A DNA stretch of 64,000 nt from Gemmatimonas sp. (lineage in GTDB: Bacteria > Gemmatimonadota > Gemmatimonadetes > Gemmatimonadales > Gemmatimonadaceae). This document shows positions 45,357 to 50,384 of this stretch, one piece after another. Location: contig OZ257156.1 of NCBI GenBank assembly GCA_965279375.1, positions 1,056,001 to 1,120,000 on the forward strand. Direction: 5' to 3'. The position numbers were made by a program, and so were the translations under genes. Positions within the stretch are counted from its first letter, which is position 1, and every line of letters begins with the position of its first letter. Under the pieces are notes generated by a model, which worked only from the letters and a program-made list of their open reading frames with translations, was not told the DNA's origin and did not search any database.

Positions 45357-46094
45357 ATGACCAACATGTCGCGGCTCCCCCCGTCGATCGCGCCACTCAG
45401 GCGTTCGACGCTCCCCAATGACCTCGCCGACCGGATCAAGCTGCTGATCCAGCGCGACCGCTACACACCCGGCGACCGGCTCCCGTCCATCGCCGCTCTC
45501 GCCCGCGACTTCGGGGTGGGCGCCCCGACGGTGCGCGAAGCGCTCAAACGGCTCGAGATGGCGGGGGTAGTCAGCATTCGCCACGGCTCCGGCGTGTACG
45601 TCAGCCAGGATGACGACGCTCTTCTCATGACTAATCCGGTGTTCACCGGCACGGTCTCCAAGAAGCTGCTGCTCGACCTCATCGAGGCCCGCATCGCCAT
45701 CGAGGTCACCAGCGCCGGACTCGCCGCGCGCAAGGCGACCGACCTGCAACTCGACGACCTCGCGCAGCTGCTCGATCAGGCCGCGCGGCACATCGACGAC
45801 GACGAGATCCTCAATCGCACCAACATGGCGTTCCATCGCGCCATCGCCATCGCCTCCGGCAACGTCGTCTTTCGGCAGCTTTTTGAAGTGCTGACCAACC
45901 TCTTCACCGACGAACAGCGCGCCATCCTCGACATCCAGAATGCGCGCGCCACCGATCTCGACGAGCACACGGCGATTCTCGAGGCGCTGCGCACGCACAA
46001 CGTCGAAGGCGCGCGCTCGCTGATGAAGCAGCATCTCGAAAAAGTCCGCGCCGATCTCGAGCAGTGGGATCCGACCACGCACCCCATCCGATGA
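45357..46094 (+). CDS. GntR/FadR-family regulator
   Basis: PGDRLPS..LA..FGVG.PTVREAL..L, FCD domain FHRAI...EH..I..AL. Confidence 0.93.
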   Translation: MTNMSRLPPSIAPLRRSTLPNDLADRIKLLIQRDRYTPGDRLPSIAALARDFGVGAPTVREALKRLEMAGVVSIRHGSGVYVSQDDDALLMTNPVFTGTVSKKLLLDLIEARIAIEVTSAGLAARKATDLQLDDLAQLLDQAARHIDDDEILNRTNMAFHRAIAIASGNVVFRQLFEVLTNLFTDEQRAILDIQNARATDLDEHTAILEALRTHNVEGARSLMKQHLEKVRADLEQWDPTTHPIR

Positions 46095-46915
46095 TGACTC
46101 CCTCCACAGACCTCTTCGATCTGTCCGGTCGCGTCGCGATCGTGACGGGCGGCTATGGCGTGCTTGGCAGCAGCATGGCGCACGCGCTCGCCGCCGCTGG
46201 TGCGCGCGTCGTCATTCTTGGCCGCCGCGCCGATGCCGCCGATGCCGTCGTCCAATCCATTCGTGCCGCCGGCGGTGAAGCCATGACGGCGCTGGCGGAC
46301 GTGGTGGACGAAGACGCACTGCGCGCCGTACGCACGGAGATCCTCGCTTCCTGGGGACGCATCGACATTCTCGTAAATGCCGCCGGTGGCAACGTCGCGC
46401 GTGCGCGCAGCGACAACGCGCTCCCATTCGGCATTCCACTCGATGCGTTCGACGAAGTGCTGCGCCTCAATCTGCACGGCACGGTGCTTCCCTCGTTGAT
46501 CCTGGGTGAGGCCATGGCCGAGCAAGGGCGCGGATGCATCATCAACATTTCGTCGATGGCGTCCACGCAAGCGTTGAGCGGCGTGATGGGCTACTCCGCC
46601 GCGAAGGCGGCCGTGGAGAACTTCACCAAGTGGCTCGCCGTCGATCTCGCACGCCGGTGCGGCGATGGTCTTCGCGTCAACGCGATCTCGCCCGGCTTCT
46701 TTCTCGCCACGCAGAATCGCGCCGTGCTCGTGAACGCCGATGGTTCGTGGACGCCGCGTGCGACGGCCGTTCTCGCCAAGACACCGATGGGTCGCTTCGG
46801 CAGTCACGCCGAGCTCAATGGTGTGCTTCGCTTCCTTTGTAGCGACGCGGCATCGTTCGTGACCGGCGCGGTGATTCCGGTCGATGGCGGCTTCAGCGCC
46901 TTCTCGGGGGTCTGA
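46091..46915 (+). CDS. SDR oxidoreductase, probable D-mannonate oxidoreductase
   Basis: TGGYGVLG, LVNAAGGN, YSAAK, VNAISPGFF..QNR, PVDGGFSAFSGV; adjacent to uxuA. Confidence 0.85.
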   Translation: MMTPSTDLFDLSGRVAIVTGGYGVLGSSMAHALAAAGARVVILGRRADAADAVVQSIRAAGGEAMTALADVVDEDALRAVRTEILASWGRIDILVNAAGGNVARARSDNALPFGIPLDAFDEVLRLNLHGTVLPSLILGEAMAEQGRGCIINISSMASTQALSGVMGYSAAKAAVENFTKWLAVDLARRCGDGLRVNAISPGFFLATQNRAVLVNADGSWTPRATAVLAKTPMGRFGSHAELNGVLRFLCSDAASFVTGAVIPVDGGFSAFSGV

Positions 46916-47952
46916 TGCGGATGGCCTTTCGTTGGTACGGACCACACGATCCCGTACCCCTCGCGCACATTCGACAGATACCGGGCGTCACCGGCATCGT
47001 CAGCGCCGTCTACGACGTGCCCGTTGGCGACGCGTGGACCGCGGATCACGTCGCGCGCTTGCGCGACACGATCAACGCGGCAGGACTCGACTTCGCCGTC
47101 GTCGAAAGCATCCCGGTACACGAGTCGATCAAGCTGGGCGATGCCGACCGCGATCGTCTCATCGATGCATACTGCGAAAGCGTCGTCAACGTCGGTGCAG
47201 CGAACGTCCCGGTGGTGTGCTACAACTTCATGCCCATCTTCGACTGGACGCGCACCAATCTCGCGTTTCCCCTACCGGACGGCTCCACCACACTCACCTA
47301 CAGCGACGCCGCCCTCTCGCGCATCGATCTGTCGCGCGGCACCGGCGAACTGCCCGGATGGAGCACGGCTTACGATGCCGATGCGCTCGCATCGCTGCTG
47401 GCGCGCTGGCGCGCCGTCGACGCCGAACAGCTGTGGGAGAACCTCGCCTACTTTCTCGAACGCGTCGTTCCCGTGGCCACATCCGCCGGCGTGAACATGG
47501 CGATCCATCCGGACGATCCCCCATGGTCGATCTTCGGACTGCCGCGCATCATCACCAGCGCTGCCGCACTTCGGCGGTTCCTGACGCTCGTCGATCAGCC
47601 AGCGAACGGACTCACCTTCTGCACTGGTTCGCTGGGCTCTGCCGCCGACAACGATCTTCCCGCGATGGTGAACGAGTTCGCTGCCATGCGCCGCATTCAC
47701 TTCATGCACTGCCGCAACGTGAAGCGCACCGGCGAACGCGCCTTCGATGAAGTGGCGCATCCGAGCCGCTTCGGCGATGTGGACATGCGCGCCGTGCTCG
47801 CCGCACTACACAAACACGGCTACGCCGGACCGATGCGCCCCGATCACGGTCGTATGATCTGGGGTGAACAGGGACGCCCCGGCTACGGACTGCACGATCG
47901 CGCACTCGGCGCGATGTATCTGCAAGGAGTGTGGGAAGGGCTCGCTGGCTGA
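46915..47952 (+). CDS. uxuA: Mannonate dehydratase
   Basis: FRWYG..DPV.L..IRQIPG, VESIPVHE.IK, CYNFMP.FDW.RT, HPDDPPW, MRPDHG. Confidence 0.95.
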   Translation: MRMAFRWYGPHDPVPLAHIRQIPGVTGIVSAVYDVPVGDAWTADHVARLRDTINAAGLDFAVVESIPVHESIKLGDADRDRLIDAYCESVVNVGAANVPVVCYNFMPIFDWTRTNLAFPLPDGSTTLTYSDAALSRIDLSRGTGELPGWSTAYDADALASLLARWRAVDAEQLWENLAYFLERVVPVATSAGVNMAIHPDDPPWSIFGLPRIITSAAALRRFLTLVDQPANGLTFCTGSLGSAADNDLPAMVNEFAAMRRIHFMHCRNVKRTGERAFDEVAHPSRFGDVDMRAVLAALHKHGYAGPMRPDHGRMIWGEQGRPGYGLHDRALGAMYLQGVWEGLAG

Positions 47953-47997
47953 TCGCGTGACAGCGATGCTCAGCGCGCACGTCGTCTCCTCGATGCC

Positions 47998-48555
47998 ATG
48001 GATCCTGCAATGTGTTACACGCGCGCGCTGAGTGCCGCCCTGCTGTTGATGTTGCCGAACATCGCCGCTGCACAGCGTGCGGCGCGTGAGCCGTCAGTCG
48101 ACGTCGCCGCGATTCGTCGAGCACGTGCGCAGTTCAACGACGCCATCACGCAGCGCGACCTCGAGTCCATGGCCCGCGTACTCGCACCCGGCTATCACCT
48201 CGTCACCGGCCGCAGCGCGCAATCACATGGTGCGGACTCCGCGATGGCGCGTTGGCGCAGCAGCTTCGCCGGAGACAGCGCGTATGGCTGTGTGCGCACA
48301 ACGCTGCGTGTGCAGGTGAATCGCGCGTGGGGACTCGCCGAGGAGTCGGGCAATTGGCGATGCCGCATCGGTCTTGGTGGCCCGTCCGTCGCGACCGGCA
48401 GTTATACCGCCAAATGGCAGCGCGACACGGCAGGGCGTTGGCGCATTCAGGTGGAGGTGTTCACGACCCTCGCCTGCACCGGCACGCCAGCGGGTTGTGT
48501 GCCGCCGGATCCGATTCCTGCCGATTCATCGACCGCCGGATCGCGGCGCGACTGA
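47998..48555 (+). CDS. Secreted NTF2/SnoaL-like (DUF4440) protein
   Basis: Signal peptide; FNDAI...D, GSYTAKWQR...WRI. Confidence 0.75.
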   Translation: MDPAMCYTRALSAALLLMLPNIAAAQRAAREPSVDVAAIRRARAQFNDAITQRDLESMARVLAPGYHLVTGRSAQSHGADSAMARWRSSFAGDSAYGCVRTTLRVQVNRAWGLAEESGNWRCRIGLGGPSVATGSYTAKWQRDTAGRWRIQVEVFTTLACTGTPAGCVPPDPIPADSSTAGSRRD

Positions 48556-48588
48556 CGCGACTGACAGGATGCCCGGGAACCCTCGCGC

Positions 48589-48615
48589 TAAAGTCCTGCG
48601 GCGAGCTGCCGATAC
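48589..48615 (+). promoter_or_regulatory. Sigma-28 (FliA)-type promoter
   Basis: TAAAGTCC-N11-GCCGATAC versus consensus TAAAGTTT-N11-GCCGATAA. Confidence 0.7.
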
Positions 48616-48627
48616 CCCGTAACGCAC

Positions 48628-48724
48628 CTCTGTTGTCCGAAAAGAGCACCCCGCCGGTGACGGCGGTCCGCAGAGCCAGCCAACTCACGCTCAGGTGAGT
48701 CCGGGCGGTCGCCGAAGCACGGAG
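48628..48724 (+). ncRNA. c-di-GMP-I (GEMM-I) fold riboswitch, G20A variant
   Basis: CGAAAAGAGCA-CCCCGCCG-GTGA-CGGCGG-TCCGCAGAGCC...ACTCAC/GTGAGT...GGTCGCCGA; ungapped register with the Vc2 aptamer core as recalled. Confidence 0.75.
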
Positions 48725-48803
48725 TCTTTACCCGGGGCCACGCAGGCACCGGGGGGTTCGTTGCATGGATCGGACGACATTCGCCCATCTCAGGAGCGTT
48801 GTC

Positions 48804-50384
48804 GTGAAGCACGCAAAATTGTTGTCAGTCTCATTGGGCCTGTGCTTTGTCGCAGGCTGTTCCGATAGTCCTACCAAGGCCCCGGCGTCGAATCCGACGT
48901 CGCTGCCGTCATCCTATCTCGTGCTGCTACGAGATACCGTTGCTAGCGCTGCGAGCGTTACAGCCAAAGCCATGTCCGCCGCAACGTCCAACAACATCGG
49001 CACCGCACCAAACACCGGCGGCGCTCGCGTCGTCGTCACAGAAGACGATGTAGAAGTGCTGGCGTCACTACACGCGGCCGTCGTCTCCGTCACACCGGAT
49101 CAGGTCGATCGTCTGCGAGCCGATCCGAGCGTGGAAGCCGTCGAGCCGATTCGCCCCGTCACGCTTTTCGCCGCCAGTCTGTTGACGACGCGCTCATGGG
49201 GACTCGATCGCATCAACCAGGCCGCACTACCTCTCGACGGGAAGACCACGCGCTTCGGCGGCGATGGCCAGGGCGTGCGTATCGCCATCTTCGATAGCGG
49301 CATTCGCTGGACGCACTCCGAAGTGGCGGGCCGCGTGGTGGGCGGGTACGACGCATTCACGAATGCCCCGAAGACCAGCGGTGATCCGCACGGCCACGGC
49401 ACGCTCGTCGCGTCGCTCGCCGCCGGCACGTCCTACGGCATCGCGACAGCCGCCACGCTGCTCGACGTGCGCGTCATGAATGCGGCTGGCTCCGGCAGCT
49501 CACTCGAACTCGCCCGCGGCGTTGACTGGGTGATCGCCGAGAAGAAGCGCGTCGCCGGTCCGATGGTCGCCAACATGAGCCTCGGCTACGCGGGCGGCAG
49601 CACCGTCATCGATGCACTTGTTGATCGTCTGCGCGCTGCTGGCATTGTGGTGGTCGTCGCCGCGGGCAACAACGGCGGCGATGCGTGCAACGTCTCACCC
49701 GCCCGCGCGCCGGGAGCGATCACCGTGGGTGCGTCGGCCGGTGGTGCGCTGGACACGCGTCCCGCATACTCAAACGGCGGCGCCTGCGTGGACCTCAGCG
49801 CGCCGGGCGACGCCATTCCCGGCGCTGGCGCTGCCGGCGATGCGACGCTCGTCATGGCGTCCGGCACGTCGATGGCCTCGCCGTTCGTGGCTGGTGCCGC
49901 TGCCGCGTACCTCGCGGTGAACAAGACAGCCACACCGGATGCCGCCGCCGCGTGGATCATCGCCGAAAGCACCGTCGGAAAGCTCAGCGGCCTGCTCCCC
50001 AACACGAGCAATCGACTGCTCACGTTGCAGCGTTTGCCCGGCCTGACTGCGCCAACGACAACCCCTGCACCCGTTCCAACACCTGCACCCGCTCCGACTC
50101 CGACGCCGACCATGCCGGCACCGGCGAGCACATTCACGCTCACCACATCGTGCGTCGCGCGCGTCTGCACCATCGATGCGTCTGTCCCCACCAACGTGAC
50201 CGCCGCGAACGCGACAACAGTCGTCTACACGTGGACGCTCACGGGAGTCGGCACCTCCGTCGGCACCAACCTGCGTCGCATGGTGATCACCTTCGGCTCG
50301 GCGGCAACACTCCCGCTTACCGTCACCGCGAAACTCGGCACCACAACGCTCGGCACCGCAACCACCACGCTCACGGTGAAGTAG
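48804..50384 (+). CDS. S8 subtilase (aqualysin/proteinase K-like) lipoprotein
   Basis: AGGAG upstream of GTG 48804; lipobox VAGC; prodomain; WGLDRINQ; D-H-S triad (FDSG, HGHGT, GTSMASP); Pro/Thr linker; beta-rich C-terminal domain. Confidence 0.92.
   Translation: MKHAKLLSVSLGLCFVAGCSDSPTKAPASNPTSLPSSYLVLLRDTVASAASVTAKAMSAATSNNIGTAPNTGGARVVVTEDDVEVLASLHAAVVSVTPDQVDRLRADPSVEAVEPIRPVTLFAASLLTTRSWGLDRINQAALPLDGKTTRFGGDGQGVRIAIFDSGIRWTHSEVAGRVVGGYDAFTNAPKTSGDPHGHGTLVASLAAGTSYGIATAATLLDVRVMNAAGSGSSLELARGVDWVIAEKKRVAGPMVANMSLGYAGGSTVIDALVDRLRAAGIVVVVAAGNNGGDACNVSPARAPGAITVGASAGGALDTRPAYSNGGACVDLSAPGDAIPGAGAAGDATLVMASGTSMASPFVAGAAAAYLAVNKTATPDAAAAWIIAESTVGKLSGLLPNTSNRLLTLQRLPGLTAPTTTPAPVPTPAPAPTPTPTMPAPASTFTLTTSCVARVCTIDASVPTNVTAANATTVVYTWTLTGVGTSVGTNLRRMVITFGSAATLPLTVTAKLGTTTLGTATTTLTVK

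Follow-up and report, generated by a model that had tools for sequence, protein, structure and literature searches.

The window analysed here is a stretch of 64,000 nucleotides from Gemmatimonas sp. Its positions 48628-48724 are a riboswitch aptamer with the GEMM-I (c-di-GMP-I) fold, within a 248-nt leader that precedes a gene for a lipoprotein subtilase (Table 1). The product had been described in an earlier note as a secreted subtilase, and the protein agrees with that description: it contains a Peptidase_S8 domain (1.7e-34) with intact Asp, His and Ser motifs, and its signal sequence is of the lipoprotein type (…LCFVAGC, with the lipobox FVAGC). The same strand carries, upstream (45357-48555), a hexuronate-type gene cluster with no relation to the riboswitch; it encodes a GntR/FCD regulator, a short-chain dehydrogenase, the D-mannonate dehydratase UxuA and a DUF4440/SnoaL-like protein. 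A block at 48590-48616 (…AAGTCC…GCCGATAC…) is conserved among the window and the genomes G100 and G026, and is possibly the leader's promoter. A scan for sigma-70-like promoters found none, and the promoter type of the phylum may fall outside such a scan.

Table 1. Positions of the aptamer, the expression platform and the subtilase gene in the window, and of the U92 copies in their own loci.
Feature	Position	Strand	Remarks
Outer P1, 5' strand (CUCUGU)	48628-48633	+	Pairs with 48719-48724; the outer stems of orthologues and class members differ in sequence
Switching strand (UGUUGUCCGA)	48631-48640	+	In P1 or paired with 48770-48779; 10-bp helix in the MFE fold
Inner P1 (CG)	48638-48639	+	Pairs with 48713-48714
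Position 20 (A), pocket base reading the alpha purine	48645	+	Aligns to U in RF03168 and to G in RF01051
P2: G-C/C-G pairs, ACC/UCC loop, 6-bp stem, GUGA tetraloop, C44	48646-48671	+	
Junction: A47 (48672), G48, A49	48672-48674	+	RF03168 alignment
P3: bulged A 48678, loop 48689-48694, bulge C-G 48702-03 (G83 = 48703)	48675-48710	+	
C92, pocket base pairing with the beta guanine	48712	+	Aligns to U in RF03168 and to C in RF01051; column 79 of alignment A3
Outer P1, 3' strand (ACGGAG)	48719-48724	+	Partner of 48628-48633
Linker hairpin without U-tract	48731-48755	+	Predicted folds
Element X (UCGGACGACA)	48770-48779	+	Pairs with 48631-48640 or with the start region; both in constrained folds
Shine-Dalgarno AGGAG (48792-96); UGUCGUG with GUG start (48804-06)	48792-48806	+	
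Lipoprotein subtilase (Peptidase_S8), 526 aa	48804-50384	+	Pfam domain, lipobox, motifs
U92 copies	L177 1490-1566; L182 1490-1568; L198 1490-1568 and 2677-2753		
U92 copies, minus strand	L185 1460-1543; L197 1465-1543	-	

Fold and pocket of the aptamer

The three helices P1, P2 and P3 meet in a three-way junction, and P2 is closed by a GNRA tetraloop. This architecture, together with A47, C92 and C44 with G83, is shared with the c-di-GMP-I riboswitches of the Rfam family RF01051 and with Vc2 of Vibrio cholerae; all of these pocket and tertiary-contact bases are found in the window copy by alignment to the model consensus. In P2, CCGCCG (48651-56) pairs with CGGCGG (48661-66) around the GUGA loop (48657-48660), and ACC (48648-50) faces UCC (48667-69) in an internal loop whose last base, 48669, is C44. 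The tip of P3 is ACUCAC/GUGAGU. The names C44 and G83 for 48669 and 48703 are those of the Vc2 numbering, which we take to apply to these two bases. The register of positions 20 and 92 was taken from the consensus lines of RF03168 (c-di-GMP-I-UAU) and RF01051, which differ exactly at two pocket positions: the base that precedes the G-C pair, and the 3' CC at its first C. The Vc2 position numbers follow the usage in PMC6140456. All the coordinates assigned to 48628-48724 in the earlier note agree with the sequence.

The window RNA differs from RF01051 in several features. Position 20 is, as had been claimed, an A and not the G of that family (48645, the base just before the G-C pair at 48646-47), the internal loop is ACC/UCC versus AAA/GAC, and P3 is continuous, without the CUAA/AUG receptor motif that the RF01051 consensus contains. 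On the other hand, a GEMM-I fold carrying both A20 and C92 is the sequence pattern of GEMM-Ib. At the base of P3, position 49 stands opposite a C (mismatch 48674/48710), at a place where 29 of 42 relatives have A-U.

Rfam scores, orthologues and covariation

A scan of the whole window at the Rfam gathering scores returned no match to any family. In a permissive scan of 451 bases (48450-48900), RF03168 aligned end to end to 48636-48717 (model positions 1-81, one inserted base) with 36.6 bits and an E value of 2.6e-6, or 7.3e-6 over the whole 5.31 Mb genome; with these values, the match exceeds chance. The gathering scores are 65.9 bits for RF03168 and 35 bits for RF01051. Since the score lies far under 65.9 bits, the RNA is not a member of RF03168. 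It shares with this family the GYRA-type tetraloop and the continuous P3, and RF03168 is its best-scoring Rfam model, but the consensus has U at both pocket positions whereas A and C stand there in the window RNA. Each clan was reported by its best model alone, so the RF01051 score of 48628-48724 is hidden behind that of RF03168. A search of the own genome with RF01051 (E<=10; 150 of 205 candidates scored) gave a list from which the locus is absent, and the window copy fails the 35-bit threshold. As far as covariance models bear on the earlier assignment to GEMM-I, they back it with the RF03168 match, whereas an RF01051 match at the gathering score is absent.

The leader belongs to a small clade. 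A BLAST search against 61 relatives gave one clear orthologue, in G026 (82% over 130 bases), and seven further matches that are fragments of 20-42 bases; with this yield, covariance models and patterns were required. Orthologues with A20 are present in G026, G100 and G073, of the same genus, and in G430, of another genus of the same family. Those of G026 and G100 stand before subtilase genes, and those of G073 and G430 share the same leader, including an identical P2-junction core, GCACCCCGCCGGUGACGGCGGUCCGCAGAGCC. A20 is kept in five of five subtilase-leader orthologues. Under RF03168, the G026 and G100 copies score 44.7-47.7 bits (44.7 for G026) and that of G073 scores 35.3, while the G430 copy gave no match at E<=0.01. 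These values place the subtilase-leader clade at the limit of the reach of Rfam. Of the 20 scanned loci of the class with A20 and ACC/UCC, 19 nevertheless pass RF01051 (36-57 bits; L075 fails), among them the G100 orthologue at 48.1 bits. The thresholds therefore leave a blind spot, in which the window copy and that of G073 have no listed RF01051 match and score too low for RF03168, even though RF01051 accepts close relatives.

GEMM-I-like RNAs are widespread in the genus, with RF03168 matches in 53 of 87 genomes in a scan whose stricter filters dropped the window's own locus. Among 30 genus loci that were read, position 20 is G in 27, C in one and A in two (G026 and G100). When 185,579 species genomes were scanned with a pattern for the core with ACC/UCC and, by design, A20, at least 120 stretches matched. 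Among the 80 loci listed, 21 are genuine aptamers, a lower bound like its parts: 14 from Gemmatimonadota, six from Actinomycetota and one from Limnocylindrales. About three quarters of the listed rows are chance matches within genes. The Actinomycetota aptamers among the matches listed come from Solirubrobacterales, Thermoleophilaceae and one unclassified lineage. In the papers searched, no report on GEMM-I in Gemmatimonas, Gemmatimonadetes or Gemmatimonadota was found.

The fold is supported by compensatory changes at several levels. Between the window, G026 and G100, the aptamer core is common, and the P3 tip (C-G to G-C) and the outer P1 change in a compensatory manner. RNAalifold predicted 17 pairs from 22 sequences, 11 of them with compensatory changes. 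In an alignment of 42 scaffold sequences (A3), on which the GEMM-I structure was imposed, standard pairs make up 84.3% of the 1126 cells, compared with 23.8-44.2% after the partners are slid by 1-3 columns. Both sides change at 15 of its 27 pairs, and its covariation score was matched by none of 500 shuffles. Pairing reaches 99.2% in P2 (helix 3), where four of six pairs show compensatory changes, and 84.7% in P3 (helix 4), where seven do; the inner P1 columns 4-81 and 5-80 are paired in 33 and 30 of the 42 sequences, respectively. The pairing, the compensatory changes and the shuffles together support the GEMM-I fold well and make the window copy a divergent member. The earlier claim of a GEMM-I-fold riboswitch is thus borne out by the end-to-end RF03168 alignment and by the covariation, as an aptamer of the c-di-GMP-I clan.

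Divergence could also be a mark of decay, and the aptamer could be a ligand-blind relic whose leader is now constitutive. In the comparison with G026 and G100, the window copy is the lowest-scoring of the clade under RF03168; it carries a G at 48673 and the A-C mismatch at the base of P3. However, the G at 48673 occurs again in four of 22 independent copies of the A20 class, the G073 and G430 copies have an identical core, the pocket and tertiary-contact bases are all intact, and the expression platform is conserved. Decay is therefore extremely improbable.

The ACC/UCC internal loop had been pointed to as a possible mark of a variant ligand, and this did not hold. With position 20 left free, a scan of 401 phylum genomes gave 36 matches, spread over 30 of them (and none for a reversed control pattern), and the 32 copies read have G20 in 28 cases, C20 in one and A20 in three (window, G073 and G430). 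Given the frequency of G20, ACC/UCC was rejected as the mark of a new ligand class. From these sequences, the loop appears as a lineage-typical variation of the scaffold, uncoupled from A20, and 48628-48724 belongs to this scaffold, with A20 in addition. Model-based alignment also found the internal loops AAA/GAC, AAU/UGC and AAA/GGC in the phylum. Two GEMM-I copies have C20 (L029 1500-1591 in G015 and L176 1490-1565 in G273), one with an AAA/GAC loop and the other with ACC/UCC.

The search for further copies in the same genome, which the earlier note had proposed, returned one: a canonical GEMM-I with G20 at G000:C1:2049104-2049262 (locus L004 1500-1658), which scores 62.3 bits with RF01051 and has a 74-nt insert in P3. 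The gene that follows it has CarboxypepD_reg-like domains. With the scaffold model (R1; 150 of 5755 candidates scored), no further copy was found in this genome, and a hit at G000:C1:2404745 (22 bits, E 0.2) was dismissed as a chance match.

c-di-GMP and 3',3'-cGAMP as candidate ligands

The base at position 20 carries the question of the ligand. According to PMC6140456, the Vc2 G20A RNA binds c-di-GMP as well as cGAMP, several GEMM-Ib riboswitches found in nature show bispecificity, A20 is stably protonated with c-di-GMP bound, and A20 is necessary and insufficient for cGAMP selectivity. The caution, made at the outset, that A20 alone does not guarantee selectivity finds its support in the Vc2 G20A RNA. 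Geobacter aptamers, as reported in PMC6456294 and PMC8835794, prefer cGAMP 1200- to 1600-fold, and A20G reverses the preference. From the bispecific A20 RNAs and the Geobacter selectivity, it follows that A20 allows cGAMP binding and proves none. The window RNA is like Vc2 G20A (PDB 3MUM and 4YB1; PMC6140456) in its single G-to-A at position 20 within a c-di-GMP-type pocket; the mutant is engineered and binds both ligands, whereas the window RNA is natural and conserved in five genomes. The likeness to the Geobacter GEMM-Ib aptamers (Gs1761 and Gm0970) comprises the fold and the A20/C92 pocket. The differences are the phylum and the lack, in the window's genome, of a Hypr GGDEF or other known cGAMP synthase.

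The cyclase inventory was read from the complete genome (99.95% by marker genes), which encodes 18 GGDEF and nine EAL domains. The 16 GGDEF domains with an intact GG[DE]EF motif all read GHxxGD, with Asp at the Hypr position; of the other two, one is a GGDDF that keeps the Asp and one is degenerate. None of the 18 has Ser, Thr or Asn as its selectivity residue. The genome gave no match to SMODS (PF18144), nor to the DncV-like family (PF21654), whose control matched no genome either. The 3',3'-cGAMP signalling suggested by the earlier note, and the Hypr Asp-to-Ser change to which it had been tied, are thus without a counterpart here: among the known families, no cGAMP synthase (Hypr GGDEF or DncV/CD-NTase), the genomic companion of GEMM-Ib, was found. 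For the relatives, the reading covered 30 GGDEF hits out of 34-97 per genome set. Asp is present at 30 of 30 loci (of 53 hits) in the four genomes with orthologues. Five other A20-bearing genomes have it in 28 of 30 (of 97 hits), two loci having failed to match the selectivity-residue expression, and Ser or Thr in none.

The regulated genes are of the kind expected for c-di-GMP. At 20 other loci of the A20 class, the first long downstream ORF encodes a subtilase in four cases, a DUF11-repeat protein in three, an ice-binding-like protein in three, a SpaA-like, a GH5, a pectate-lyase-like and a YkuD protein in one each, and a product with no Pfam match in six. The products downstream of the class are all secreted or surface proteins, the usual type of GEMM-I regulon, and are consistent with c-di-GMP regulons; the window RNA, which itself precedes such a gene, resembles the RF01051 riboswitches in this respect, and close relatives, including an orthologue, pass the threshold of that family.

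Since c-di-GMP is certainly made in this organism and a cGAMP source of known kind is absent, c-di-GMP is the more likely signal. The canonical G20 GEMM-I of the same genome also supports it. The ligand of the aptamer is therefore most likely c-di-GMP, probably bound at an affinity lower than, or tuned differently from, that of the G20 copies. The retention of A20 in the five orthologues suggests selection, perhaps for a different response threshold. The same retention could also mean selection for a ligand other than c-di-GMP.

The aptamer could, accordingly, be a GEMM-Ib-like riboswitch selective for 3',3'-cGAMP, with cGAMP supplied by a synthase outside the recognised families. It has the A20/C92 pocket of the Geobacter cGAMP sensors (PMC6140456), and its orthologues hold A20 throughout though G20 prevails in the scaffold, which suggests selection for A. 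Pocket variants with U92, and Asn-type GGDEF domains in three genomes that bear them, add to this. The selectivity is nevertheless distinctly improbable, given the Asp of the GGDEF domains in the window's genome and in its relatives, the unmatched SMODS and DncV-like families, and an A20 that by itself, as in Vc2 G20A (PMC6140456), confers no selectivity.

The U92 variants are copies with U in the C92 column, six of the 42 with the ACC/UCC scaffold, all with G20 and all from sister Gemmatimonadota genomes (Table 1). The feature is absent from the window's genome. The G20/U92 pocket might accommodate a dinucleotide of G plus A bound the other way round, or else c-di-GMP by way of a G-U wobble. 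Three of the five U92-bearing genomes, these three of family f2, encode Asn-type GGDEF domains (L289 in G164, L290 in G400 and L296 in G219) with the motif NDQ[YF]GHE[AC]GN … GGDEF, in which Asn replaces Asp at the base-selectivity residue. Such domains were not found in the window's genome, nor at the G478 and G150 loci that were read. Together, the U92 variants and the Asn-type GGDEF domains make dinucleotides besides c-di-GMP conceivable in Gemmatimonadota and keep a bolder reading open. By this reading, the phylum would use a second, mixed-purine (cGAMP-like) dinucleotide, read by the A20/C92 and G20/U92 variants and made by a cyclase beyond Hypr and CD-NTase; in some families the candidate cyclase would be the Asn-type GGDEF, and in the window's genome another enzyme. 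Such a second signal is very unlikely.

With c-di-GMP as the favoured ligand, the A20 signature alone appears as a poor predictor of cGAMP signalling: the genome has the normal set of c-di-GMP components and encodes no cGAMP synthase of a known kind. With its ACC/UCC loop and GYRA tetraloop, the window RNA is a concrete and testable example of a natural A20 aptamer on another scaffold, and its ligand preference bears on the role of A20 outside Geobacter, namely a tuning of the affinity for c-di-GMP versus a change of specificity.

Expression platform and proposed direction of the switch

The sequence between the aptamer and the gene allows two mutually exclusive pairings. The word GUUGUC occurs both in the 5' P1 strand (48631-48640) and around the start codon (48800-48806), and element X is complementary to both regions. 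The GUUGUCCGA of the 5' P1 strand, the X consensus UCGGRCGAYA and the block GGAGCGYUGUCGUG, which holds the Shine-Dalgarno (SD) sequence and the GUG start, are each conserved in five of five orthologues. In the unconstrained fold of the window, 48631-48640 pairs with 48770-48779 around intact P2 and P3. When the tail is folded alone, with the aptamer excluded, X and the bases that follow it pair with the SD and the start in all five orthologues, and in the constrained fold the SD-start block is fully paired once P1 is formed. The state in which P1 is open (anti-P1) is lower than the P1 state by 1.5-6.7 kcal/mol in the constrained folds of the five orthologues. The gap is small, so that ligand binding could reverse it, and from this a translational OFF switch is inferred. 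Two of the five leaders (window and G100) keep part of the SD paired, in small local hairpins, even in the anti-P1 state.

In the proposed mechanism, the 5' P1 strand and the start region would compete for X. In the ligand-free RNA, the 5' strand would pair with X and leave the ribosome site accessible. With the ligand bound, P1 would be locked, X and the following bases would then pair with the SD and the GUG, and translation would be turned off. On balance, the leader is probably a c-di-GMP-responsive translational OFF switch before the lipoprotein subtilase gene, the OFF direction being predicted solely from thermodynamic folds. A Gemmatimonas-like bacterium would then turn off a surface-anchored subtilase as the dinucleotide rises. 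The predicted OFF platform differs from the Geobacter GEMM-Ib examples, in which the ligand is described as inducing the reporter (PMC6456294).

The same aptamer, with the same likely ligand, could also turn the gene ON, or act on transcription or RNA stability. The aptamer and X are separated by a hairpin (48731-48755), and the unconstrained MFE folds of G100 and G026 already hold the sequestering hairpin. RNA contigs confined to the leader (48639-48866) could stem from a leader RNA that is stable or terminated. On the other hand, the three-way complementarity is found in five of five orthologues and the SD and start are paired only with P1 formed, a scan of the + strand found no terminator-like site and no U-tract terminator, and the contigs are blind to RNA ends and strand and may come from DNA in the libraries. 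Control of this other kind is therefore rather unlikely. Positions 48666-48651 resemble a terminator on the minus strand, but they are merely the reverse complement of P2.

Short contigs (151-233 nt, 90-99% alike) from three freshwater metatranscriptome runs match the leader and, within the 801 bases compared, leave the coding region uncovered. The runs cover small shares of the stretch (0.05-0.10), and in run X3 no contig matched it. Blind as they are to ends and strand, and with possible DNA in the libraries, the contigs hint weakly at transcription of the leader in close relatives. Their differences from the window fall in the P3 loop and in the linker.
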